Part shown: positions 4,054 through 64,000 of the stretch, piece after piece
Layout of the letters: each line of letters begins with the position of its first letter
How positions within the stretch are numbered: the stretch's first letter is position 1
DNA from: a virus
Lineage: Duplodnaviria > Heunggongvirae > Uroviricota > Caudoviricetes
Virus record (IMG/VR): IMGVR_UViG_3300029849_000005
Location: 19,937 to 83,936 of that record
Strand: one strand, 5' to 3'
Length of the DNA stretch: 64,000 nucleotides
Program-made: the position numbers and the translations under genes
Notes under the pieces: model-generated
What the model was told of the DNA's origin: nothing
What the model saw: the letters and a program-made list of their open reading frames with translations, nothing else
Database searches by the model: none

Positions 4054-6112
4054 GAGTATAAAATCTTCTACTAGCTTCCTCTTGCCTTGCTTGGCTAAAG
4101 TTACTAATACGTTTCAAATAACCAATAACTCTAGTAGCATAATCAACGTTCTTACTCCCACATTTTGGACATTCCTTAAGATACCTTTTATCAATATGTC
4201 CACAATCATTACAAATAGTATTTGGAATATTAAATGTGAAATAATTAGTACCATTGACTGCTGCCACTCTCAACAAGTTACGATACTGTTCCTTACTAAG
4301 ATGTTCATCGAGATTCATATGCAATGCACTACCTCCGTCTAAGTATTGTACATATTCCTTGCCATGTAATTTAAACTTGTCAAGTACGGTAAGAGATGTG
4401 TCTTCAACAGCATAGAAATAGCTATTATAGCAATCTCTAGGAACTACATAACCTGCTTTCCTGTCCCAATTAGCATGTTTAACCCCAAGGTTCTCTGCTG
4501 GAACAAATTCTGTGTTAAACATTAACTCCTTAGTTCTCGCTTTACGATTTTCATCACTGATAGTTTTAAGGATAGATTGCATAAACTCTCTATAAGTTGG
4601 ATTATCATTAACTGGGATTCCTAAGAACTCCGCAGCCTCAATAACTCCATTAACACCTATAGTCAAATACTGCTTCTTCATATCAATGAATCCAGCTGTA
4701 TATACAGTAAGCAACCCGTCTTTTAAATAGTCTTTAAGCAATTCATTATATGCTGTTTGGAACTTATGAACTTTCTTCACATTCTCACGCAAATACTCAA
4801 TCATATCATATCCATTATTAACTGCATCCTGAACTAACCTATTGATATTTAAGGTCATTACTGACTTGCTACCAGTAGCAATACCACCAGCTCCAAGAGA
4901 ATAACTGAATTGATTATCAGTAACCTCATTACGAAGTCTGCAACAAGAAGATAAGGAATCAGGACTATCGGACATATAAGTAAAGAACGAGTGTCCTTTG
5001 CTATACATCTCTGCTGTAAAGTCTGCATACTCCTCATCAACAACATCCTCCCCGTTAGTCAAAAGCGCCATAGTTTCAACAGGGAATGTAAGAATACACT
5101 TAGTACGTTCCTCATTAAACCACTTAGCAAATTTCTTCTGCAACCAACTAAGAGATTCCCATTGAGGTTGTGTACCGTCTGGGAAATAGAACTCTCCAAA
5201 GATACCTTCAAAGTAGTTCTTATCAAAGTAACTGATATTCCAGAATACTGATTGGAAGTTACGAGCAGCTGCTGGCTGATTGATTGAGTATACAATCTGC
5301 TGGAACTTCTGCTCTAACGTCTTGTCAATATTTCTGTGTTTGTCAACCATTTCCTCTGGACGTTTCCAATAATCATCACCCCACTCTTTACGAGCAAAGT
5401 AATCAAAGTACATCAGAAACTCTCCAGTGGCTACTGCACCTGCAAATTGAGAACTAATCGCAAATACCAGATTAACGAACATGCCACAGAAAGAATCCAG
5501 GTTCTTGGGTCTGGCAGACAAACCTCCAATTGGCTGTAACCCCTCCAATAGAAAGGGATACATAGTGATAGCCACGCAGTAGGGCATAATCGATGTTTCA
5601 TCATGCTTATAAAGTAAATGTTGTTCCAGCATACGGATATATTCCTTAGCTAACTCCTCTCCATACAATTCTCTGATTTTATCAGTAAGAATTGCACGAT
5701 TTACCTTAATAACATCACCTTTGAACAATTCTCCATTTAAGGTTACAATGTTCTTCTCGGTAACATTAGCATTAGCATCGTATTTACTACCAGTTGCAGC
5801 ATTCTTGGCTTTAGCATAGTCTTTAATGAATTGTTTCTTCTCATTTAAGGCTCTACTTTCGGCTCTTTTACGCCTATACAAGATGAATGCCTTAGCAACA
5901 TCATAATAATCACATGCCATAAGAGCTTTCTCTAACTGGTCTTGAAGCTCCTCAACTGAAACTATGTTGTTAATATACAACTCATCTTTAATATCCTGAA
6001 GAATATCAGAATCAATTGGCTCGTTAACAGCGTTAAATGCCTTAGTAATTGCAGCATCAATCTTATTAACGTCGAAAGGTTCTACTTTTTTGTCTCTCTT
6101 AATTACTAACAT
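4046..6112 (-). CDS. nrdD: anaerobic ribonucleoside-triphosphate reductase (class III)
   Basis: 688 aa. N-terminal ATP-cone-like start. C-terminal glycyl-radical motif (RVIGYL) preceded by a Zn ribbon (CNDCGH...CPKCGS). Paired with nrdG. Confidence 0.9.
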   Translation of the reverse strand: MLVIKRDKKVEPFDVNKIDAAITKAFNAVNEPIDSDILQDIKDELYINNIVSVEELQDQLEKALMACDYYDVAKAFILYRRKRAESRALNEKKQFIKDYAKAKNAATGSKYDANANVTEKNIVTLNGELFKGDVIKVNRAILTDKIRELYGEELAKEYIRMLEQHLLYKHDETSIMPYCVAITMYPFLLEGLQPIGGLSARPKNLDSFCGMFVNLVFAISSQFAGAVATGEFLMYFDYFARKEWGDDYWKRPEEMVDKHRNIDKTLEQKFQQIVYSINQPAAARNFQSVFWNISYFDKNYFEGIFGEFYFPDGTQPQWESLSWLQKKFAKWFNEERTKCILTFPVETMALLTNGEDVVDEEYADFTAEMYSKGHSFFTYMSDSPDSLSSCCRLRNEVTDNQFSYSLGAGGIATGSKSVMTLNINRLVQDAVNNGYDMIEYLRENVKKVHKFQTAYNELLKDYLKDGLLTVYTAGFIDMKKQYLTIGVNGVIEAAEFLGIPVNDNPTYREFMQSILKTISDENRKARTKELMFNTEFVPAENLGVKHANWDRKAGYVVPRDCYNSYFYAVEDTSLTVLDKFKLHGKEYVQYLDGGSALHMNLDEHLSKEQYRNLLRVAAVNGTNYFTFNIPNTICNDCGHIDKRYLKECPKCGSKNVDYATRVIGYLKRISNFSQARQEEASRRFYTHA

Positions 6113-45173: not shown

Positions 45174-45225
45174 AATTCTAATAATTAGGTTAATAATGAT
45201 TTTCGCAAACTCTTATTAGCCAGCG

Positions 45226-45313
45226 CGGAGAGTGCTGGATTCGAACCAGCGGAACCCTTTTGAGGTTCGGTCCCTTAGCAGGGGACTGGTTTAAGCCACT
45301 CACCCAACTCTCC
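45226..45313 (-). tRNA. tRNA-Ser (anticodon GCT), type II
   Basis: Acceptor GGAGAGT/ACTCTCC. Anticodon stem GTCCC/GGGAC with loop CTGCTAA. Long variable arm. T arm GCTGG-TTCGAAT-CCAGC. Confidence 0.75.
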
Positions 45314-52227: not shown

Positions 52228-52230
52228 AAG

Positions 52231-52302
52231 TGCCCCATGTTGGACTCGAACCAACGCCATACAAGTTTAGAATTTGCTCTTCTACCACTGAAGTAATGGG
52301 GC
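52231..52302 (-). tRNA. candidate amber-suppressor tRNA (anticodon CTA, reads UAG)
   Basis: Exact 73-nt canonical layout: acceptor GCCCCAT/ATGGGGC, D arm CTTC-AGTGGTA-GAAG, anticodon loop TTCTAAA (U33, A37), T arm GTTGG-TTCGAGT-CCAAC. The anticodon stem has only 3 Watson-Crick pairs plus G·U. Confidence 0.55.
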
Positions 52303-54603: not shown

Positions 54604-56298
54604 TTAGACCTTCACAGGCTTCTTCTGCACGCTTGCATTCTTCTTGACAACATCCTTCTCTAGAATCATCATATTAAGCAACTCTTGATTCATAGCATGC
54701 TTAAAGATGTCTCTAGTGGTTTTAGGCACCTGGAACCTCTTCTCTCCAGTAATAAATGAGGATGTTGAATTATTAAGTCCATTTACTAAGAAGCAATTTG
54801 ACACTCCTGGAACCAAAGCCACATTAGGTCTTCCCTTATATGCTAAAGGAACTCTCCAAATGATAACTTTGAATGCTCTTACAAATTCCTTACTGAAATT
54901 TGCTTTAAGCAGTCTTTGCTTAAATTCCACGAATGCTTGGTTGTTCAACTTGGTAAAATATGTATGGTTAGTAATTACCACACAGCCTCTAGGGAACTCT
55001 CCTTCATCCACACCATAATCTTCTTTCATTTTACACAGCATTTCTGCTATATTAATAATAGAAGGATTCTGGCATAATGCTTCTTCTTTGTCAGATTTCC
55101 ATTTCTCAATGACATTCTGACCTTTGAACTTACGTAGAACCATGTTATCCTCTAACACGGCATAGGAGTTCTTGAATATTGTAGGAAGTAATTCAGAATG
55201 ATATAAAGCATATGCTTTACCCAAACTGTAAGCAGATGTTTCGCTATTCTCTATCTCACCATTAGCAGAATGACTTATATCTCTTACTACCAACAACGGA
55301 GCTACTCTATTGCGTTTAGCATTATCAACAAATACGTTGAAACTTGCATTAATAGAAGTTTCCATAAATTCTGGAATCTCTTCGGCAATTTTATCCAATC
55401 CGTATGGTTTGAACAGAGTATGTAGAAATCCGCTATTAGAGGGCTTCTTACGGTTCTTTAACCAGTTCCGATACTTCTCTTTAAGACCTTGATGTTTGAG
55501 GAATTTAGAGCCTACTAGCTGTGCCAGCGCCTTTCCAGTAACAGTGTCAAAATCGATTTCCAAGAATTTCTTTTGACTGATTAACTGCTGCCATTGGGCT
55601 GCTTTCCCGCTATTCTTCATCTTCCTATATTTACGATAGGTTGAATAGTCTCCTTCATCCTTAGGTTTACCATAAAGGCCTTCCGCCAAGAATTTGGCTA
55701 CTGTGTTACGTGCTTTTGCCTCATCTGTCTTACATGCAACACTGGAACGAACACGAGGAAGATACTTCTTTACTAAATCACATGTCTGACCGTTGGCAAG
55801 ACCTGCGAATATGACTTTCTTGAAGAAGTCCCAATCCAATCTGTGCTTAAAGCCATGGAGTTGAACATCTAAAGCCATCATAGTAATGAAATCTTTCCAG
55901 CATCCAGCTGCTGCAAAATAAGCAATGTTGGCATGGAATGTGGGTTTGTGATAGATTGCCAACCACAACATTCTCATTATACCTTCATTCTTCAAACCTT
56001 CTCCTTGCTGTGTATCAAGTTGTATAACTCCTTCCGGGGTAGTTATTCTACATTTACGAGTTATCATTCTCGTATATGCAGTAAACTTAGTACATAGTAA
56101 TGGATTAGCTTTCCATAAAGGATACATATCTTTAGCCACTTGCACGTAGGTACGTGGCTGAAGACATTTCTTAAGATTAACAAACTGGTCTATGAATAAC
56201 TGATTATTATCCACAAACTTAGGTTTATTCTCATCCCGCCTTTGACGTGCGGCATTAGGGTAAGGCCTCCTTGGCCTTTGTGCTCCTTTCATTTCCAT
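54604..56298 (-). CDS. large protein with possible C-terminal vWA-like region (TROVE/Ro60-like architecture is a weak possibility)
   Basis: 564 aa. DxSxS (VVRDISHSANG) about two-thirds of the way in, then a TN-containing strand (VVITNHTYF). Helical, K-rich N-terminal ~330 aa. Confidence 0.5.
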   Translation of the reverse strand: MEMKGAQRPRRPYPNAARQRRDENKPKFVDNNQLFIDQFVNLKKCLQPRTYVQVAKDMYPLWKANPLLCTKFTAYTRMITRKCRITTPEGVIQLDTQQGEGLKNEGIMRMLWLAIYHKPTFHANIAYFAAAGCWKDFITMMALDVQLHGFKHRLDWDFFKKVIFAGLANGQTCDLVKKYLPRVRSSVACKTDEAKARNTVAKFLAEGLYGKPKDEGDYSTYRKYRKMKNSGKAAQWQQLISQKKFLEIDFDTVTGKALAQLVGSKFLKHQGLKEKYRNWLKNRKKPSNSGFLHTLFKPYGLDKIAEEIPEFMETSINASFNVFVDNAKRNRVAPLLVVRDISHSANGEIENSETSAYSLGKAYALYHSELLPTIFKNSYAVLEDNMVLRKFKGQNVIEKWKSDKEEALCQNPSIINIAEMLCKMKEDYGVDEGEFPRGCVVITNHTYFTKLNNQAFVEFKQRLLKANFSKEFVRAFKVIIWRVPLAYKGRPNVALVPGVSNCFLVNGLNNSTSSFITGEKRFQVPKTTRDIFKHAMNQELLNMMILEKDVVKKNASVQKKPVKV

Positions 56299-56678
56299 CT
56301 CTTTGTTTAAATTTATTGTTATGAGAGTCTTTCTTTATTCTAAACAATAAACAAGCGGCATTACGGCAATTGGACATACGTTAACCCGCTCGCCACTTAC
56401 AGACCGTAATGCACACTTGACCAGGCAGGAAAGAGGTTTGCTTGGTGACCTATCTGCATGCTGATTATATAATGCAGACCGTGTAGATTCTCTCTTACAC
56501 AATATCTATAGTAGATTTGCACTACTGTTTTCTGATGCTTAATCAGGTGAACTTCTACTGTTCGAATAGATACAGGTTTCAACTCTTTGATATAGCCTTT
56601 AAGTCATAGACACACTCCGGAGTATGTCTACTGGTTCTTCAGACCAAGTTTTGCTACCACTATTCGTCAATAGTGGAT

Positions 56679-57894: not shown

Positions 57895-58176
57895 TTACTC
57901 TTTATATATTCTAATTCGAGATTTACGTAGATGTACACGCATTCGTTTAACCTCGGACAGAATCCAATTACGTTTGCATTGATGTAACCATGCAATTACA
58001 TCTTCGTCAAATAATAATTCTTGACCACAGTAGTATGTGCCACTGTAGTAAGTATCAAGCTTTGGTCTTAATATGTCATGAGGACTATCAGTAACTATGT
58101 ATTGATAATCCTCACCTCTTATTAATTTCAGCTTCTTTGACTCCTTGCGAAGTTTCTTTAATAACCTTGCTTTCAT
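57895..58176 (-). CDS. hypothetical basic protein
   Basis: 93-aa ORF. Confidence 0.4.
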   Translation of the reverse strand: MKARLLKKLRKESKKLKLIRGEDYQYIVTDSPHDILRPKLDTYYSGTYYCGQELLFDEDVIAWLHQCKRNWILSEVKRMRVHLRKSRIRIYKE

Positions 58177-58580
58177 TTTAATAGTTCCAATTTAGCTACG
58201 TCCTTATCATACCATATCCCAATCCAGAAGTTGTCTACAAAGTTCCTATGATTCATGATGGTATAATTAAGCCTTAAGATATCACTAGATATAAGATAGT
58301 AATTCTTCCTATCAGTAGCCTCCAATGTTTCTTTGAGCACTGCGTGCTTGCCAATAATTTGAATATTCCTTGTAATAGCGAATGGTAATGAAATCGCTGC
58401 CCCAACTGTTGCTATTGAGAATACAACCTCAACTGCCACTGCAACTCCTCTTAGGTCTTCAGACCCTACTCGCGAAAGACATACACAAATAAGTAAAACA
58501 ATCACTGCAATAATCCCATAAAATTGATATTTAAACGTTAATAATAGTGGACCATCGCGGACTCGAACCGCGGTCTTCAC
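58173..58580 (-). CDS. membrane protein (two TM helices)
   Basis: 135 aa. Its 5' end overlaps a tRNA 3'-fragment-like sequence, so the true start is uncertain. Confidence 0.4.
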   Translation of the reverse strand: MKTAVRVRDGPLLLTFKYQFYGIIAVIVLLICVCLSRVGSEDLRGVAVAVEVVFSIATVGAAISLPFAITRNIQIIGKHAVLKETLEATDRKNYYLISSDILRLNYTIMNHRNFVDNFWIGIWYDKDVAKLELLK

Positions 58581-58590
58581 AACTCTAAAT
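58545..58590 (-). pseudogene. isolated tRNA 3'-half-like fragment (T arm plus acceptor 3' strand)
   Basis: Minus strand reads CCGCGG-TTCGAGT-CCGCGA-TGGTCCA. No matching 5' half within ~200 nt. Confidence 0.3.
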
Positions 58591-59131
58591 AATAAGATTA
58601 CGTGTGTCTCTATTTTATTACATCAGCTGTTGAGTTCAGCATGTAGGTAGTTTTACTAAGAAGCCGAGTGTTAATTCACCAATTACGTCTCCCTCGTAGG
58701 GCTACGACTTAGTTGTTCACAAACTACCAAACTGGGCTTGACCGAACGGTCGCTCCACCACTCCATTTACGTTGGAGAACGTTTCTATTTGTAACCCATA
58801 GATAGGTAGTGGAGATTTCAGCTTTACTAACCTTTGGCTTTCAAGTTAAGTGGGCTGCCCTATATGCTTCTTCCCACACCTCTTCTGTTTCTAGGTCTCT
58901 CCAATTAACCCGACTTAATCAATGACGTCCACTAATTAAGCCAGCAGCTTAGGCTGCCATTCTGTAAGTAGTGTTTCCACTTAAATTGCCGTATCATTAT
59001 TAAAGAGTTGGTACGAACTCTACACGTCTTACTACCCAGTCATCATGAATCAATTCCATGTATGGCCCATAAGTGGCATGATTATACTCTCATGCCAGGA
59101 GTCTCATTTAAAATAATGAATATAGCAGCCA

Positions 59132-59171
59132 GTATCCTCCTGTGCCACATTAAGTGGCGTACCCATTATGG
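59132..59171. repeat. non-coding repeat copy A (TCCTGTGCCACA ... GGCGTACCCATTATGG)
   Basis: The 16-mer GGCGTACCCATTATGG and the 12-mer TCCTGTGCCACA recur identically at 63728..63814. Confidence 0.6.
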
Positions 59172-59201
59172 ACTTGGCAGCTTACGAGTTATTTGTTCCA
59201 T

Positions 59202-59555
59202 TTAAAATGGTAAGTTTCCTTCATGTTTCATCCAACTATAAACTACAATTTCATAATCTGGGAAATCGTTGGCAAGTTTAATACAACTGTCAAACGATAA
59301 CTCTGTTATGCATATAAGAGGGTAATCATTGTCAAGCCATTCTCTAATTACATCCTTATCAGGAATATGCTCATCCAATGACCATTTAAGCTCACGTTCA
59401 AGTCTTTCACATATCGTATTTAATTTAATATGGTCATGTGTTCCATATATAACATTTAATATGTAATACAATAAATGGCTATTGAACTTATCAACATCGC
59501 TAATAAGAATATGCCTCTTGGCATTCCTTAAAGAATTAACTGCATTCTGATTCAT
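59202..59555 (-). CDS. hypothetical protein
   Basis: 117-aa ORF. Confidence 0.4.
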   Translation of the reverse strand: MNQNAVNSLRNAKRHILISDVDKFNSHLLYYILNVIYGTHDHIKLNTICERLERELKWSLDEHIPDKDVIREWLDNDYPLICITELSFDSCIKLANDFPDYEIVVYSWMKHEGNLPF

Positions 59556-59717
59556 ACACTTATTAATTAAAAGCCCAAGTGTGTTTCACAACATGGCTGG
59601 GCAAACTCAAAATACAAAACAAAACTTTAAAATGATTGGAGAGGATGGGAGATTCGAACTCCCTCCGCCAGTTCGCAACTAGCCTTCTACCATTAAACTA
59701 ATCCTCTCTTGGCATTA

Positions 59718-60332
59718 TTAACGCTTCACAGCTTCTTCAAAGTTCTTTACAATCTTCTCTGCCTTCTCACGGGAACAGTCAAGCATGTGCATAGTAAGAT
59801 GAATGCGTTGTTCACGCGTCAAATCTTCTATGGCTCCTTCATTGCCTTCTTCTCTAGCCTTGAGAGTTTTTAATAGCTCTTCTGGCGTTTCAACATCAGC
59901 ACCGATAGCCTTAGATATATCCTTCAGAAACTCAAACAAAGCTTTTTTGCCTTCTTCGACTTTAAATGTAGAGCCTTGTCTTTGGTCTCTCATTTTCATA
60001 AGAATGTCAAAGATTTCACGGGCAGAAGCTTCGTCATCCTCATTCAGAGTGACAGCATGACGTTCATGAGGTTGAACACGAATAGATTCGTCTTTAACTT
60101 CCATAACGAGCAAGTCTTCACCGTCACCACGAACAATGACGATTTCACGGTCTTTCCTTTCGTCATAACCGCCACCAACAGTGAAGTTCTTGTAAGGAAC
60201 TTCTTTGCCTTCAGCGGCATCGAGCACATGCCCAAGAATAGTTTCAGCTTCTTCTACGATAGAATCATAGCATGGGTCTTTCTTTGGATTGAAATCAATA
60301 CCAGCTTTCAGGCGTTCTTGTAATTTCTTCAT
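59718..60332 (-). CDS. hypothetical acidic protein
   Basis: 204-aa ORF. Confidence 0.45.
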   Translation of the reverse strand: MKKLQERLKAGIDFNPKKDPCYDSIVEEAETILGHVLDAAEGKEVPYKNFTVGGGYDERKDREIVIVRGDGEDLLVMEVKDESIRVQPHERHAVTLNEDDEASAREIFDILMKMRDQRQGSTFKVEEGKKALFEFLKDISKAIGADVETPEELLKTLKAREEGNEGAIEDLTREQRIHLTMHMLDCSREKAEKIVKNFEEAVKR

Positions 60333-60644
60333 TTCCTTCTAAATTTAAAGAGTTTGATTTATTAATTATTTGATTAGTCTGGTAAGAACCAGACTCCTAT
60401 GGCCGCAACAATACCTATAGCTTCGACTACATATGTAAAATCGCCAGCTGTAGGCAACATGATATTAATAATTACTAATGCTCCAATGGCAGAACTAATT
60501 ATTATATTGTCTTTCTTATTCTTAGTGAGTTTCATAATTACTAATATTGGTTAAGAGTGACTCCACTGTGACGTGCCAAATCACAGTGAAGTTTCGTCGT
60601 AATTTTCAACGACTCATCAGACTCTCTTTTAGACGGAAAGGAGA

Positions 60645-60887
60645 TTATGATATATAATTATCAATAGAATCTCCAGTTGCTGTCCTAATCTGTTCCCATG
60701 GAATGTTCTCTTCTTCGCAAAGCTGTTTGGAGGACTGTATCCACTCCTTGGCGAAGTCTATAAAATCACCGCATTCTCTCTTAGCCATTACCATAGCTTC
60801 TTTGCAGCTGTAAGCGATGATTCCGGGAAGAAGAGATTTGTCATTGTTAATTGCATGTTTAACTATAGGGCTGTTCTTTATATCCAT
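60645..60887 (-). CDS. hypothetical protein
   Basis: 80-aa ORF. Confidence 0.35.
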   Translation of the reverse strand: MDIKNSPIVKHAINNDKSLLPGIIAYSCKEAMVMAKRECGDFIDFAKEWIQSSKQLCEEENIPWEQIRTATGDSIDNYIS

Positions 60888-60897
60888 TGTTTAAAGG

Positions 60898-61131
60898 TTA
60901 GATTGTTGTTACACTGCTGATAATAGAATAATCGATAATGATTGAAAGCATGCCGTTTAAATCAGATGTCTCATAAGGAACCTGATGTTTAGCAATTTGT
61001 CTTTCGGCTTGCTGCATCATGGGCTGGTTAGTTCCAAACCCAAGAAGCAATTTACCTTCACGAGAAGTAACAGATTGATGATTGAGAGTACATGGTATTC
61101 TCTGTTTCCTAAATTGTATCTGCGATAACAT
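60898..61131 (-). CDS. hypothetical protein
   Basis: 77-aa ORF. Confidence 0.35.
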   Translation of the reverse strand: MLSQIQFRKQRIPCTLNHQSVTSREGKLLLGFGTNQPMMQQAERQIAKHQVPYETSDLNGMLSIIIDYSIISSVTTI

Positions 61132-61133
61132 TG

Positions 61134-61478
61134 TTACTTAGTTAATAAGTTAGCAAATCCTTTCCAGAAGTAGCGAGGGAAGTGTCCAGTCAGTTGTACA
61201 TAATTAACTCCTGCTGACACCTTATGTCTAGCTGTAACCTTATGTCCGTCAATGGACATCGTGATTAAGCTGCCAGAAACTGTCACATCACTATCTGACA
61301 TATCATACAAATCTCCTAAGTCCTTAATAGGAATCCACTTAGATGTAGTTTCATCTTTGTAGCTATTAAGACGAGATTGTAGTTTGGCATCAGAAGGCTG
61401 GCCAGTTCTCATATCAATAACCTCACCCTCACAATCTGCAAGGATGAAGTTCTGTGTATAGTTAAAATATAGTTTCAT
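61134..61478 (-). CDS. hypothetical protein
   Basis: 114-aa ORF. Confidence 0.4.
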   Translation of the reverse strand: MKLYFNYTQNFILADCEGEVIDMRTGQPSDAKLQSRLNSYKDETTSKWIPIKDLGDLYDMSDSDVTVSGSLITMSIDGHKVTARHKVSAGVNYVQLTGHFPRYFWKGFANLLTK

Positions 61479-62308
61479 TCAAACGTTACATTATAATCGT
61501 GAATAGCCATAGTACGAGTGTGTAACTCATGGACTTCTACAGCACTTTTCTTGATATATAACTTAAATCTAGTACTAAATTCAGTTATTATATCACCATT
61601 TTGCAAACCTCTAAATTTGGATGCAGACATGGTTTTGTCTGCAAATTTGGCCTTAGTAGTAAGTATATATTGCCCAGTTTTGCATGACATGAGATAGTCT
61701 AAGTAATAGTCTTCTTTGGCTCTCTTTACTTCATAATAATCATTACTTGGGTCAGTGATAAATGTCTCAATGTCAGCAACGTCAGAGATTGGTACCTCCT
61801 TGACAATTACAATCTTCCTGCCCGTAGGATTAACTATCTCGAACTTGAGAGTCTTTCCAATAATCTCAGATAGAATAACCATAACTTGTCTGTTGAACTT
61901 AGTTATTCCTAATACTCTCAAAGCCTGATAGTTTATATTCCTAACATCAGATTTCCATTGGGGTTCTTTGTAGATTCCATTATTAACAATGAATGCCATA
62001 CCTATCCACAACAATCCCTTTTCAGCTGTGGCATGATTGCAGTTATTAGTAGCAATGGATGCCATTTCTGCTCCACTAATTACTAAAGTTCTAGTGTTGC
62101 CAGAACCTTTGACAGTCATATCATGTCCATGTCGCAAATACAATTTACCTTCGTCTGAAGTTAAGGTGTCTCTACCAGCCAGCTCGTTAACTGTTTTAAT
62201 AAACATCTCATCCACAGCTTTCCAGGCTCTCGGATTTGCTAGTATAGCTTTAAGGGCTTCCACATTCTGTGGGATAGTATATCTGTTAGATATTTCTTCT
62301 AAAGTCAT
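61475..62308 (-). CDS. hypothetical protein
   Basis: 277-aa ORF. Confidence 0.45.
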   Translation of the reverse strand: MTLEEISNRYTIPQNVEALKAILANPRAWKAVDEMFIKTVNELAGRDTLTSDEGKLYLRHGHDMTVKGSGNTRTLVISGAEMASIATNNCNHATAEKGLLWIGMAFIVNNGIYKEPQWKSDVRNINYQALRVLGITKFNRQVMVILSEIIGKTLKFEIVNPTGRKIVIVKEVPISDVADIETFITDPSNDYYEVKRAKEDYYLDYLMSCKTGQYILTTKAKFADKTMSASKFRGLQNGDIITEFSTRFKLYIKKSAVEVHELHTRTMAIHDYNVTFE

Positions 62309-62371
62309 AAAATAAGTTGGCAGTTGACCTACTCACTGCCAGGTTCTAAAAATATGGAAATGTAATACTCC

Positions 62372-63199
62372 TTAGCGTTTTAACGATGCCACTTCTATGT
62401 AAGAATTGAACCAATTCTTTTCTGAAGGTTCTTCCCACCTACCGGAATCGACTCTACGCTTCAACCGATTCATGAACTGGTCTACAGAAATATTCATAAT
62501 ATCTCTGGCTCGTATCCAATCCTTGATTCTATATCTCCTAAACGGAGACAAGTCAGTCTCTCCTGTACCTCTTCTAGCACCAAGGATTTCGCCAATAAGT
62601 TTCAGTTGATTAAGCGTAGGCATAGCTTTCTTCACCATTTCTTCCGTAATAACCAAGGTGCCGTCTCTGAATGCAGCTTCAGCATTATTAGAAGACAGAG
62701 GACTTAGAAGTGCTAGAGCTGCCGTCACACTATACATTGTACCTTTCATGAAATACTTAGAATGCTTCTCCATGAAGGATTTCAGTATTATGTATGAGCT
62801 CTTCTTTTGCTTGACATATGATATGAGTCTGTCATTTGCCTTCCAACTCTTCTGTGTGTTATTGATGAGCATGCACGTTTCTGTTGCTTCAACATCCTTT
62901 ACCAAGTACAACTTCATAGTAAAGGGAATACCTCTGCGCAAACATTCTCTATATGCAGATGTTCTGTGAGCACCTTCGATGACAGTGAATGTTCCAGCAG
63001 ACACAATGATAGGAGGAATGAAGAGCCCTTCTTGAATAGCCTTAACTAGGTCGTTTACCTTGTTAGGCTTAATTTCCCTGTTTGTCTCAAGAAGATGAAG
63101 GCCGTTCAATATGTCGGCATTCTTCTCTGTAACCACGTAAGTCGGTTCGATTGGTAATTGTTTCAGTTTGTTAACAAGTGATAATTCCATAATCTTCAT
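62372..63199 (-). CDS. ParB-like nuclease-domain protein
   Basis: PPIIVSAGTFTVIEGAHRTSAY resembles the ParB/Srx-fold GxHR motif. 275 aa. Confidence 0.5.
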   Translation of the reverse strand: MKIMELSLVNKLKQLPIEPTYVVTEKNADILNGLHLLETNREIKPNKVNDLVKAIQEGLFIPPIIVSAGTFTVIEGAHRTSAYRECLRRGIPFTMKLYLVKDVEATETCMLINNTQKSWKANDRLISYVKQKKSSYIILKSFMEKHSKYFMKGTMYSVTAALALLSPLSSNNAEAAFRDGTLVITEEMVKKAMPTLNQLKLIGEILGARRGTGETDLSPFRRYRIKDWIRARDIMNISVDQFMNRLKRRVDSGRWEEPSEKNWFNSYIEVASLKR

Positions 63200-63255
63200 G
63201 CATTTTACCTATACAATGCAAGGTTTTAGTGAAACGTTAATTATTAATGATGTAA

Positions 63256-63480
63256 TCAAGATTTACGGTCAATAAGCATGTTGTTATCAGCAAGGATATC
63301 AAGCATTACCTCCTCTTCCGCTTCAATCATGTCTGGTTCTACCTGATTCCAAGGATATAGATTACATATCCAAGTAATGTCTGCACTGTTAGATATTACT
63401 TGTTTGTGTAAACCTACTAAAGCATATGGGTGTTTAGTAGCGTAATTTCTTCCAAATCTAATGGCTAGCTTATATTGCAA
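63256..63480 (-). CDS. hypothetical small protein (non-ATG start in the track)
   Basis: 74-aa ORF. The codon at 63478-63480 is TTG on the minus strand, so the start is uncertain. A 7-1-7 palindrome sits ~35 nt upstream. Confidence 0.3.
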   Translation of the reverse strand: MQYKLAIRFGRNYATKHPYALVGLHKQVISNSADITWICNLYPWNQVEPDMIEAEEEVMLDILADNNMLIDRKS

Positions 63481-63514
63481 AAAGATTCTAAGTGGAGTCA
63501 GTTTCCATTTACTA

Positions 63515-63529
63515 ATTTAGTCACTAAAT
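63515..63529. promoter_or_regulatory. perfect palindrome ATTTAGTcACTAAAT upstream of the 63480 gene
   Basis: 15-nt perfect inverted repeat seen directly. Confidence 0.3.
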
Positions 63530-63727
63530 AAAAATACTGTTTCATGATTTAATACAACTTACCTATACGTTGTGAGGTCTTTAATGGTTAATTACGACTA
63601 ATTAGTTTCAGTCTATTGACTTACTTATAGCATCGCCACGTAAAGGCTTAGTCATGATGCCACTCCCGTCACGGGAGGATATGCTGTAATAAAATGAACA
63701 AAAATATTGTCACAATAAAAGACCCCA

Positions 63728-63814
63728 CCTTCCTGTGCCACACTCCTTTGCCTTATCTCACGATAAGACATCTCTCCAGTATTAGGAGATGCTCTGCATT
63801 AGTCTCCGGGCGTA
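63728..63814. repeat. non-coding repeat copy B (TCCTGTGCCACA ... GGCGTACCCATTATGG)
   Basis: Same 12-mer and 16-mer as copy A, separated here by ~55 extra nt. Confidence 0.6.
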
Positions 63815-64000
63815 CCCATTATGGTGGTAGATTATATTATTTCTACGAAAGTAATCACGCAATAGTTTTACATTTACTCACCTTTAAGATGAGTTCTTGG
63901 TCTTCAGGGTCTTTCTCTAACTGACGTTCGTAGCTAGTAAGACTGAATCCTTGCCAGTTCTCTAGACACCATGCTACATAGAATGGATTGAAGTAACAGA

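Follow-up and report, generated by a model that had tools for sequence, protein, structure and literature searches.

The 3' end of a noncoding RNA can be formed by a downstream tRNA-like element, as in MALAT1 with mascRNA, which is cut by RNase P; the tRNA punctuation model of mitochondria and, in phage T4, the stable RNAs encoded in the tRNA cluster are further examples. At the phage locus described here, RNA units are likewise predicted to be delimited by precisely cut flanks, and a structured module is followed by a ribozyme, tmRNA or tRNA and is often preceded by a tRNA. Unlike those three systems, two classes of self-cleaving ribozyme appear, from the sequences, to interchange with RNase P substrates. 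Among phage RNAs, the RAGATH motifs associated with hammerhead and twister ribozymes (RF03103, RF03152) are similar in being structured intergenic RNAs near self-cleaving ribozymes, and RAGATH-34 and a RAGATH-1-type hammerhead share the window (the whole 64-kb stretch of DNA analyzed) with the module, but the module fits no Rfam 15 family, even under lax filters. Gut phages also encode theta ribozymes, a minimal HDV-like type (Kienbeck et al., 2024; PMC10879173), and a candidate related to them lies beside one module copy.

Two motifs had been reported as exact repeats in two intergenic regions of the window. Both were recovered, each with 2 exact occurrences and no others in the whole 64 kb, as direct repeats 4.65 kb apart (Table 1). 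The 16-mer had no match in 100 shuffles, even at 2 mismatches, and at least 2 matches to the 12-mer at 1 mismatch were obtained in 2 of 100. Because the motifs share order and strand in both copies, a chance origin is implausible. Some of the geometry in the original prediction was corrected: the motifs are separated by 6 nt in copy A rather than adjacent, by 66 nt rather than ~55 nt in copy B, and copy B extends to 63824 rather than stopping at 63814. The regions were borne out as non-coding and structured; their functional strand is the minus strand, on which all genes here lie. The repeats are the conserved core of a module that probably marks processed RNA genes, with the module RNA predicted to be released by a downstream cut.

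Read on the minus strand, the 16-mer and 12-mer form opposite strands of a single RNA motif, in which a covarying outer helix (P-out) is followed by an asymmetric internal loop, an inner helix GCC/GGC (P-in) and a tip that varies from 3 to 165 nt. The loop is invariant and purine-rich (AUAAUGGGUAY on the 5' side, ACAGGA(A) on the 3' side), the conservation has a sharp 5' boundary, and the tips bear GNRA tetraloops. In alignment A3 (29 distinct variants, two module forms), 88.1% of helix cells were paired vs. 69.9% in shuffles (reached by 0/500), the covariation score was 0.519 vs. 0.182, and slid registers gave 14–44% paired; this alignment and that of the ribozyme below were structure-guided and N-padded, hence biased towards structure, and the aligned contexts share phylogeny and so are not independent samples. 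P-out was independently predicted by RNAalifold. The first two C of the 16-mer were paired as CC/GG, UC/GA, CU/AG, UU/AA, GC/GC or GU/AC, and compensatory variants of copy A among relatives were GCUAC/GUAGC, ACCCCG/CGAGGU and GUCU/AGAU. Counting against the proposed module, a small hairpin GGG-UACG-CCC rivals the inner helix. Single-sequence minimum-free-energy folds were no better than shuffles (z −1.9 to 0). An invariant internal loop between covarying helices agrees with the earlier view that the repeats are a DNA or RNA element rather than protein-coding, and specifically with a family of structured ncRNAs. An origin or regulatory DNA element, also suggested, is unlikely, since compensatory changes preserve the pairing over inserts as long as 165 nt.

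Table 1. Positions of the repeats and RNA features in the 64-kb window.
Feature	Position	Strand	Basis or remark
12-mer TCCTGTGCCACA	59138-59149, 63731-63742		Exact matches
16-mer GGCGTACCCATTATGG	59156-59171, 63809-63824		Exact matches
Module copy B	63724..63828	-	Exact motifs; helices and covariation; helix-aware window scan
Copy B P-out 5' strand ACCACC	63823-63828	-	
Copy B 5' loop strand AUAAUGGGUAC	63812-63822	-	
Copy B P-in 5' strand GCC	63809-63811	-	
Copy B ornate distal insert	63740-63808	-	GUGA tetraloop hairpin
Copy B P-in 3' strand GGC	63737-63739	-	
Copy B 3' loop strand ACAGGAA	63730-63736	-	
Copy B P-out 3' strand GGUGGG	63724-63729	-	
AU-rich linker, module B to hairpin H0	63678..63723	-	Sequence unconserved, length constrained
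Hairpin H0 (CUCCCGUGACGGGAG)	63663..63677	-	Read from sequence
HDV-like (theta-related) self-cleaving ribozyme candidate	63596..63661	-	Segment parse, covariation
Ribozyme P1 GGCAUC/GAUGCU	63656-63661 / 63629-63634	-	G1.U wobble
Ribozyme P2	63648-63653 / 63596-63601	-	
Ribozyme L3 UUUACGU	63638-63644	-	
Ribozyme P4 hairpin	63610-63621	-	Flanks AAGUA and GAAA
Ribozyme J4/2 CUAA	63605 (candidate catalytic C)	-	
Type I hammerhead ribozyme	60554..60646	-	RAGATH-1 hammerhead 25.7 bits, below gathering score
tRNA-Arg(GCG), between module copies	59638..59707	-	
Module copy A, short form, within tmRNA leader	59128..59178	-	Exact motifs; covariation
Copy A outer GCC/GGC	59176-59178 / 59128-59130	-	
Copy A P-out GUCC/GGAU	59170-59173 / 59134-59137	-	
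Copy A 5' loop strand	59159-59169	-	
Copy A P-in GCCAC/GUGGC, loop UUAAU	59154-59158 / 59144-59148	-	
Copy A 3' loop strand ACAGGA	59138-59143	-	
Remaining tmRNA leader	59069..59127	-	AU-rich stretch, hairpin, then 6 nt to tmRNA G1
Leader hairpin GGCAUGA-GAGUAUAA-UCAUGCC	59075-59096	-	
Phage tmRNA gene	58545..59068	-	Full-length match to Rfam RF00023

The leader that holds copy A belongs to a phage tmRNA gene (61.3 bits, above the gathering score of 47; E 1.6e-22), which ARAGORN and default-filter Rfam searches both failed to detect. As in RF00023, the gene has a tRNA-like domain, with G3.U70 in the acceptor stem (GGGCCAU/AUGGUCC) and a T arm (CGCGG-UUCGAGU-CCGCG), and its tag frame ends in AA plus a stop codon in a hairpin (GNTTYRMAA and stop, ~58978-58949). 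A 23-mer from the tag end was found in 63 viral loci, the tag frames of which vary and all end in RMAA and a stop. The gene differs from that family in its length (524 nt, of which 274 nt are inserted in the pseudoknot region), in having no encoded CCA, in being phage-encoded and, in this lineage, in being preceded by a structured module. The leader hairpin carries a compensatory change in one relative (L008, GGCACGA/UCGUGCC). A tRNA 3' half had been noted at 58545-58590; its T arm and acceptor strand are present, but it is not an orphan, being the 3' end of the intact tmRNA.

Copy B forms the basal part of an ornate RNA domain; after it come an AU-rich linker, a hairpin (H0) and the HDV-like ribozyme candidate, just upstream of a gene cassette. 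H0 ends 1 nt ahead of the predicted cleavage site (between 63662 and 63661), and all relatives have a hairpin at this position with varying sequence (GGCACAGCGGUGCC, CCCCACAGAGGUGGGG, GGAGACUUAGGUCUCC). The nested double pseudoknot of the ribozyme covaries strongly (94.9% paired vs. 66.7% in shuffles, 0/500); 7/7 pairs change on both sides in P1 and likewise in P2, and the outer P3 pair is AU in 10 and GC in 9. It was the sole descriptor match on the minus strand, with AU as J1/2 and GCC/GGC as P3. In a variant from L116, L3 UUC is matched by a G following P1', a compensatory change for P1.1. Weighing against an HDV-like assignment, one sub-class has C1-G instead of the G1.U wobble, P1.1 has just one pair and a U.U mismatch, and P4 is separated from the candidate catalytic C by four conserved bases (GAAA); none of the Rfam HDV families scored on the candidate.

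With theta ribozymes as published (PMC10879173), the segment order is shared (P1, J1/2, P2, P3, L3, P3', P1', P1.1, L4, J4/2, P2'), as are P3 (ACC/GGU or GCC/GGC), L3 (U-NN-NCGY), a J4/2 of CUAA or CCAA directly before P2', a P1 beginning with G paired to U, and a habitat in human-gut Caudoviricetes with suppressor tRNAs; the window P1 is identical in several published examples. Relative to the same source, the ribozyme type found here differs in an L4 of 21–25 nt with a covarying P4 and conserved AAGUA/GAAA (5–8 nt in theta), in the C1-G sub-class, and in a cleavage site that abuts a hairpin ending a structured RNA and not a tRNA 3' end. Its L3 has UU rather than CC, so that P1.1 is reduced to one U-A pair and the mismatch. 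The ribozyme sequence was absent from the part of the published theta lists that was compared (PMC10879173).

The hammerhead between the copies has a complete core (CUGAUGAG...CGAAAC...GUC) and is predicted to cut ~25 nt before the start codon (ATG) of the ORF that ends at 60374. In related loci this type is represented by 23 sequence variants, with all three stems differing by eye.

Across 96 distinct contexts from gut phage contigs, a cleavage device follows the module: an HDV-like ribozyme in 76, tmRNA in at least 10, a hammerhead in 3–4 and a tRNA in 1–2, at a distance of 61–115 nt (for the 76 ribozyme contexts, from ACAGGA to the ribozyme motif). A tRNA ends 23–47 nt upstream of the module in 11/43 of the first contexts (10 CUA or UUA-type suppressors, 1 tRNA-Gln(UUG)), and in a larger set suppressors made up at least 16 of ~23 tRNAs upstream of the module, against a background of 64/434. 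The two-copy arrangement, 4–5 kb apart, is maintained in distant lineages (L116, L147).

The original prediction favored a mobile island that had integrated beside a tRNA or tmRNA gene and had att-like direct repeats as its boundaries. The spacing of the exact repeats, the tRNA-like 3' end adjoining one of them, the ParB-like nuclease gene inside (PHROG E 1.5e-9) and the replacement of part of the segment in relatives would all suit such an island. It was nevertheless rejected as scarcely credible. Att sites at tRNA or tmRNA genes share with this locus a tRNA-like 3' end near a direct repeat, but here that end belongs to an intact tmRNA and is not a duplicated gene fragment, and Pfam matches were absent from all segment ORFs, leaving no sign of an integrase or recombinase. 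Among relatives, 61478-58001 was 93–99% identical and only 63559-61478 was replaced; this cassette extends from a point past the ribozyme to a gene border, its borders lie off the repeats, and no presence/absence polymorphism was bounded by them. The repeats are not terminal duplications, as they are conserved in diverged phages in which the flanks differ; they consist of invariant loop bases between flanks that covary, and their two-copy layout persists in L116 and L147. A promoter or protein-binding DNA site starting two RNA transcription units, with a −10-like CATAAT/TATAAT and a GC-rich discriminator as in stable-RNA promoters, is very unlikely. Most copies contain YATAAT, the element stands at the start of RNA units, and an extra TATAAT lies 7 nt upstream of the copy B element; yet tmRNA leaders have TGTAAT, CTCAAT, CGTAAT or TGAAAT at the hexamer while AAUGGGUA is invariant, and inspection by eye showed no conserved −35 element. 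A DNA site also leaves unexplained why the two C preceding AUAAUGGG covary with positions as far as 190 nt downstream, and the tetraloops of the tips and the position of many copies shortly after a tRNA, as if co-transcribed, likewise speak against it.

A reading in which the module itself acts as a small self-cleaving ribozyme, or as a specific endonuclease site, and defines an RNA 5' end is highly improbable: the sharp 5' boundary, the invariant internal loop as core and the ribozyme-rich neighborhood (HDV-like, hammerhead, RAGATH-34) are set against a covarying helix that extends the structure upstream of the conserved bases, a short form of just ~45 nt with a simple loop, no match to a known ribozyme family and no recognized conserved cleavage-site context. 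A cis-acting leader that is not released is unlikely, but less so; its loop would bind a protein, a metabolite or RNA polymerase, in a riboswitch-like manner or as in nut/put-like antitermination, and control read-through, ribozyme cleavage, tmRNA maturation or downstream expression. An invariant purine-rich loop amid variable helices resembles a ligand or protein site, the module always precedes another functional RNA or an ORF at a constrained distance, and the element stays while the cassette downstream of copy B varies. In L027 the module directly precedes an ORF, located between it and the tmRNA, which also counts against the processed-RNA reading. However, the four unrelated kinds of downstream partner share only the ability to be cut precisely, a pattern more in keeping with end formation than with control of one specific activity; a terminator-like hairpin with a U run was not found after the module, and no conserved alternative pairing across lineages was seen by eye.

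For the preferred reading, in which the module marks processed RNA units, the region would be transcribed within a long minus-strand transcript, and a precise cut just 3' of the module-linker-hairpin unit would yield a separate RNA whose 3' end is protected by a hairpin. The cut would be made by ribozyme self-cleavage between 63662 and 63661 at copy B, and by RNase P at tmRNA G1 (59068) at copy A. A protein or other factor most likely binds the invariant purine-rich loop, and the cut that releases the module RNA would also liberate the downstream mRNA or tmRNA.

The 12-mer and 16-mer repeats on which the original prediction was built are exact, and each occurs only twice in the window. Their spacing had been misjudged (adjacent in one copy, ∼55 nt apart in the other); the gap is 6 nt in copy A, the short copy upstream of the tmRNA, and 66 nt in copy B. 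The 16-mer was absent from 100 of 100 shuffles with 2 mismatches tolerated. The genes in this part of the window are all on the minus strand, so the element was read on that strand, as CCAUAAUGGGUACGCC ... UGUGGCACAGGA. The 16-mer was found at 26 related viral loci and at 8 chance or coding loci, and further viral and human-gut metagenome loci were gathered by pattern scans for the other parts of the element; a relaxed short-form pattern, run on viral contigs, returned just more tmRNA leaders and chance matches in coding DNA. Read as RNA, the two repeats are the strands of an invariant asymmetric loop, 5′ (NN)AAUGGGUAY and 3′ ACAGGA(A/U), between an outer helix (P-out) and an inner helix (P-in). 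In P-out, the two bases preceding AUAAUGGG, plus up to 4 further upstream, pair with the bases after ACAGGA(A), in forms that include ACCACC/GGUGG, AGACC/GGUCU, AGGAUU/AAUCC, AGCAUC/GAUGCU, CCAGGU/ACCUGG and GUCC/GGAU. P-in is GCC with GGC, other tmRNA leaders showing GCUAC/GUAGC and ACCCCG/CGAGGU, and past P-in the tip varies in size between a loop of 3 nt and an insert of 165 nt carrying GNRA tetraloops. Across 29 distinct variants, 88.1% of helix cells were paired vs. 69.9% when shuffled (0/500 shuffles reached the observed value), the covariation score was 0.519 vs. 0.182, and slid registers were only 14–44% paired. P-out was recovered independently by RNAalifold. A structured ncRNA family, one of several earlier suggestions, is thus upheld in a more precise form, as covarying helices round an invariant loop.

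Exactly two of these modules are present in the window, and their flanking helices differ. As the motif is conserved across variants with covarying helices, the identity of copies A and B reflects selection on the loop bases, not recent duplication. No Rfam family matched the module, and a literature text search with the motif strings returned nothing relevant. By inspection, the internal loop fitted none of the kink-turn, loop E and tetraloop-receptor readings, and a likeness to RNase P RNA (CAGGAAGGUC vs. CR-I) was dropped, given no Rfam match and a fold accounted for otherwise. Long-range pairings (CAGGAG/CUCCUG, and CCAU with AUGG across G1 of the tmRNA) had one compensatory case (L116) and were inconsistent among lineages; with support partial, they are not claimed. 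Minimum-free-energy folds of single sequences were uninformative.

Positions of the RNA elements and associated features in the window
Feature	Position	Strand	Remarks
12-mer TCCTGTGCCACA	59138-59149; 63731-63742		exact
16-mer GGCGTACCCATTATGG	59156-59171; 63809-63824		exact
Module, copy A	59128-59178	-	short form, in tmRNA leader
Module, copy B	63724-63828	-	ahead of HDV-like ribozyme candidate
tmRNA gene	58545-59068	-	524 nt
135-aa ORF	58173-58580	-	listed start GTG
Hairpin H0	63663-63677	-	after copy B
HDV-like ribozyme candidate	63596-63661	-	66 nt; after AU-rich linker and H0
Type I hammerhead	60554-60646	-	complete core CUGAUGAG / CGAAAC / GUC; 25.7 bits vs. gathering score 56.3
RAGATH-34 RNA	56569-56676	-	121.5 bits
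564-aa ORF	54604-56298		directly downstream of RAGATH-34
Hairpins with loop GUAUAGGUAA	63195-63227; 63549-63581	-	immediately before starts of 275-aa ParB-like ORF and 74-aa ORF
tRNA array	26237-54440		28 genes, one strand
CUA-anticodon (amber suppressor) tRNA	52230-52302	-	'Pyl' per ARAGORN
Overlapping ARAGORN tRNAs	45210-45313	+; -	Arg(TCG) plus, Ser(GCT) minus
Cassette replaced in relatives	63559-61478		74-aa ORF, ParB-like ORF, 277-aa ORF

The repeats of copy A lie 70–103 nt upstream of the 5′ end (G1) of a tmRNA, which is an already known kind of RNA. With permissive filters it gave a full-length Rfam match (61.3 bits vs. a gathering score of 47, E = 1.6e-22, model positions 1–374 of 374), and it has the acceptor stem GGGCCAU/AUGGUCC with G3·U70 and a T arm. 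What had been taken for an orphan tRNA half is the 3′ end of this gene, its T arm being the piece seen. The tag frame is GNTTYRMAA then a stop codon, with the hydrophobic-A-A end of tmRNA tags; the 23-mer at the tag end was found at 63 IMG/VR loci, in 20 tag versions that differ upstream and all end in RMAA and a stop. ARAGORN and the Rfam default filters both missed this tmRNA, probably on account of a 274-nt insertion in its pseudoknot region, and such phage tmRNAs are probably under-annotated. The 135-aa ORF overlaps the final 36 nt of the tmRNA, and its real start codon probably lies downstream of the listed one. One related locus (L027, minus strand, ∼5314–5700) is recombinant: an ORF of ∼85 aa, whose end (...GTVIEL and stop) is like that of the gene preceding the tmRNA in other lineages, is inserted between short module and tmRNA, and the tmRNA is from a different sub-lineage (80% identity).

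Copy B is followed by the only convincing HDV-like site returned by a descriptor scan of the window. It parses as GGCATC/AT/GACTAA/GCC/T/TT/ACGT/GGC/GATGCT/AT/AAGTA-AGTCAATAGACT-GAAA/CTAA/TTAGTC, with the helix order of HDV (P1, P2, P3 hairpin, P1′, P4 hairpin, P2′) and a nested double pseudoknot in which P1 and P2 cross, the P3 hairpin lies inside P1, and P4 lies between P1′ and P2′. Pattern scans found the core CCUUUACGUGG...AUAAGUAAG at 46 viral loci and in only 2 bacterial-genome records, MAG contigs of 130–140 kb that are probably both phage. In an alignment of 20 distinct sequences, hand-built and structure-guided and so leaning towards that structure, 94.9% of cells in the 21 pairs were paired vs. 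66.7% when shuffled (0/500), slid registers reached 28–46%, and pairs were changed on both sides in P1 (7/7) and P2 (7/7). The large effect and the low pairing in slid registers make an artefact unlikely. A 3-bp P3 closes an L3 of 7–8 nt with U first and G at position 6 (GCC-UUUACGU-GGC in the window; variants UUCACGUU in L116 and UUUACGC in L226), the outer P3 pair being AU in 10 sequences, GC in 9 and GU in 1. The candidate catalytic C opens J4/2 (C-N-R-A), which is invariantly CUAA or CCAA and abuts P2′ (with UA added in one sub-class); four conserved bases (GAAA) stand between J4/2 and the P4 stem. At the predicted cleavage site the window and 10 of the 20 distinct sequences have a G1·U wobble, the other 10 having C1-G. 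P1.1 would consist of only one Watson-Crick pair (U-A) and a U·U mismatch, replaced on both sides by C-G in L116 in a single compensatory event. At three loci (L028, ∼5062, minus strand; L144; L226) the ribozyme is altered in P3 or L3, where CCUUUACGUAGC breaks a P3 pair and L3 is GUUACGU in one and UUUACGC in another; possible explanations are loss of activity, tolerated variation and misassembly.

No Rfam HDV-type family matched at E up to 10, a 131-nt query included; Rfam HDV-type models are narrow and cannot encode the pseudoknot. A split tRNA or group I intron, suggested by GAGACUA, AAGGCAAA and the P7-like GACUAA/UUAGUC, was ruled out: the order of the helices is that of HDV and not of group I, the flanks are not exons, and no Rfam intron matched. 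The candidate was compared with the theta ribozymes of gut phages, published as a list with the segment boundaries marked (PMC10879173, Supplementary Data 2). Relative to the listed sequences the architecture is the same and the sequence partly identical, J4/2 wholly so. The window type differs in having L4 of 21–25 nt, with a covarying P4 hairpin set between AAGUA and GAAA, where the listed theta ribozymes have 5–8 nt; UU in L3 where they have CC; and, in half of its variants, C1-G in place of G1·U. Its predicted cleavage site follows H0, whereas that of the majority theta class lies no more than 5 nt from the 3′ end of a tRNA; upstream tRNAs, where present, end before the module, ∼150 nt or more from the predicted site. 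A descriptor scan found no theta-type ribozyme beside the 28 tRNAs of the window. The candidate is a variant of the HDV-like/theta kind.

To survey contexts, 166 modules with both helices were reduced to 96 distinct contexts and the first recognisable element 61–115 nt downstream was scored. This was an HDV-like ribozyme in 76 contexts (and 1 with a mutated P3), a tmRNA in 10 (and 2 with variant tags, L147 and L148, and L027 with its intervening ORF), a hammerhead ribozyme in 3 (and 1 probable variant, L192), tRNA(CAU) in 1 distinct context (L182, L186), and an odd tRNA-like sequence in 1 (L165). Unrelated cleavage devices are swapped at one position after the module-linker-hairpin unit. HDV-like ribozyme, hammerhead, tRNA and tmRNA have in common a precise endonucleolytic cut, by self-cleavage or RNase P, and the hairpin is always ahead of the cut site in these contexts. 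At L192, L193, L202, L227 and L182/L186 the unit is followed by a hammerhead or tRNA(CAU), the HDV-like ribozyme being absent from that place. The layout of module and ribozyme, 4–5 kb, then module and tmRNA recurs in the diverged loci L003, L030, L116 and L147. On the other side, 11 of the first 43 contexts had a same-strand tRNA ending 23–47 nt ahead of the module (CUA, n = 6; UUA-type, n = 4; Gln(UUG), n = 1). In a larger set, suppressors made up at least 16 of ∼23 tRNAs preceding the module vs. a background of 64/434, an enrichment that is suggestive and not a statistic because the contexts are related lineages. Suppressor tRNAs (CUA/UUA) hold this position in L036, L037, L044, L045, L052, L054, L056, L060, L144, L147 and others, and in L065 a tRNA-Gln(UUG) stands in their place.

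A mobile island bounded by the repeats, with an att site at the tRNA piece, was the leading idea of the original prediction and was rejected: the piece belongs to the tmRNA, none of the 8 ORFs enclosed by the repeats and neither of 2 flanking ORFs within the 64-kb window had any Pfam match, so that no integrase or recombinase was seen there, and the breakpoints lie away from the repeats. For the ORFs between the repeats, the sole annotation was at the level of a ParB-like PHROG match. The repeats share nothing with the tmRNA 3′ end and so are not a duplicated part of a target gene. No presence/absence polymorphism bounded by the repeats was seen in relatives; the breakpoints are 63559 and 61478, not 63809 and 59171. 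Relatives are 93–99% identical to the window over 61478–58001 and about 77–86% over 64000–63559, and only the stretch between is replaced, its borders falling past the ribozyme and at the start of a gene. In close relatives (L003, L010, L013, L027 and L030 were compared) the replacement cassette carries a different ParB-like gene, and the only common piece is 71 nt of intergenic sequence (62303–62373). A sigma-70-type promoter is weakened as a reading by the hexamer in the −10 place, which varies (TGTAAT, CTCAAT, CGTAAT, TGAAAT) while its neighbouring bases are invariant; no −35 element common to the copies was seen by eye. A purely cis-acting module, riboswitch-like or antitermination-like, is a serious rival to the following scheme of RNA release. 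A minus-strand transcript would be cut directly after the module-linker-hairpin unit, by the HDV-like ribozyme at copy B and by RNase P at G1 of the tmRNA at copy A. Cleavage would release a module RNA of ∼110 nt (A) or ∼165 nt (B) with the hairpin at its 3′ end, and the one cut would also liberate the mRNA or tmRNA that lies downstream. Most likely, the purine-rich invariant loop would be the binding site for a protein or other factor.

The window encodes NrdD, a Dda-like helicase, an exonuclease and a 670-aa protein ∼47% identical to proteins of large myoviruses, e.g. Bacillus phage TsarBomba and Serratia phage phiMAM1. No close annotated relative was found in the phage collection, and searches of annotated phage genomes at the DNA level, near and distant alike, returned two unannotated fragments only; related contigs measure 93–192 kb or more and were obtained from human-gut samples. 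The CUA tRNA suggests TAG recoding in this phage. At least the Arg(TCG) call of the overlapping tRNA pair is probably spurious, there being no Rfam tRNA there at gathering score. The hammerhead is intergenic and lies ∼25 nt ahead of the start codon (ATG) of the following ORF, and in related loci its type has 23 sequence variants in which, by eye, all three stems differ. The 564-aa ORF matched PHROG 850 'RNA-binding protein' (E = 1.3e-11; no Pfam match), and with RAGATH-34 may form an RNA-protein pair. The hairpin motif with the GUAUAGGUAA loop also precedes ORFs in relatives, often after UUAUUAACGUUUCACUAAAACC, and may be an operator of translation or a phage promoter.

As a motif the module is undescribed, and its association both with cleavage devices that replace one another and with suppressor tRNAs merits experimental follow-up. 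Tentatively, and with doubt prevailing, it may be a phage ncRNA class not described before, or an RNA element that senses a ligand or protein, connected with the toolkit by which large gut phages recode translation. On this reading it sits immediately behind suppressor tRNAs and in front of the tmRNA, and its 3′ end would be made by interchangeable cutters (HDV-like ribozyme, hammerhead, tRNA, tmRNA). To our knowledge, no biological role has yet been established for most small self-cleaving ribozymes. Since one conserved unit precedes an HDV-like ribozyme, a hammerhead, a tRNA or a tmRNA in this family of loci, a role for such ribozymes as built-in makers of RNA ends is suggested, which is directly testable by RNA-end mapping and cleavage assays. 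If true, self-cleaving ribozymes would gain a defined job, as equivalents of RNase P sites in RNA 3′-end formation. The frequent position behind amber or ochre suppressor tRNAs, and that in front of a phage tmRNA, connect the unit with recoding of stop codons and rescue of ribosomes in human-gut phages that are abundant and uncultured, and would, if the reading holds, point to a new regulator of their stop-codon code switch.
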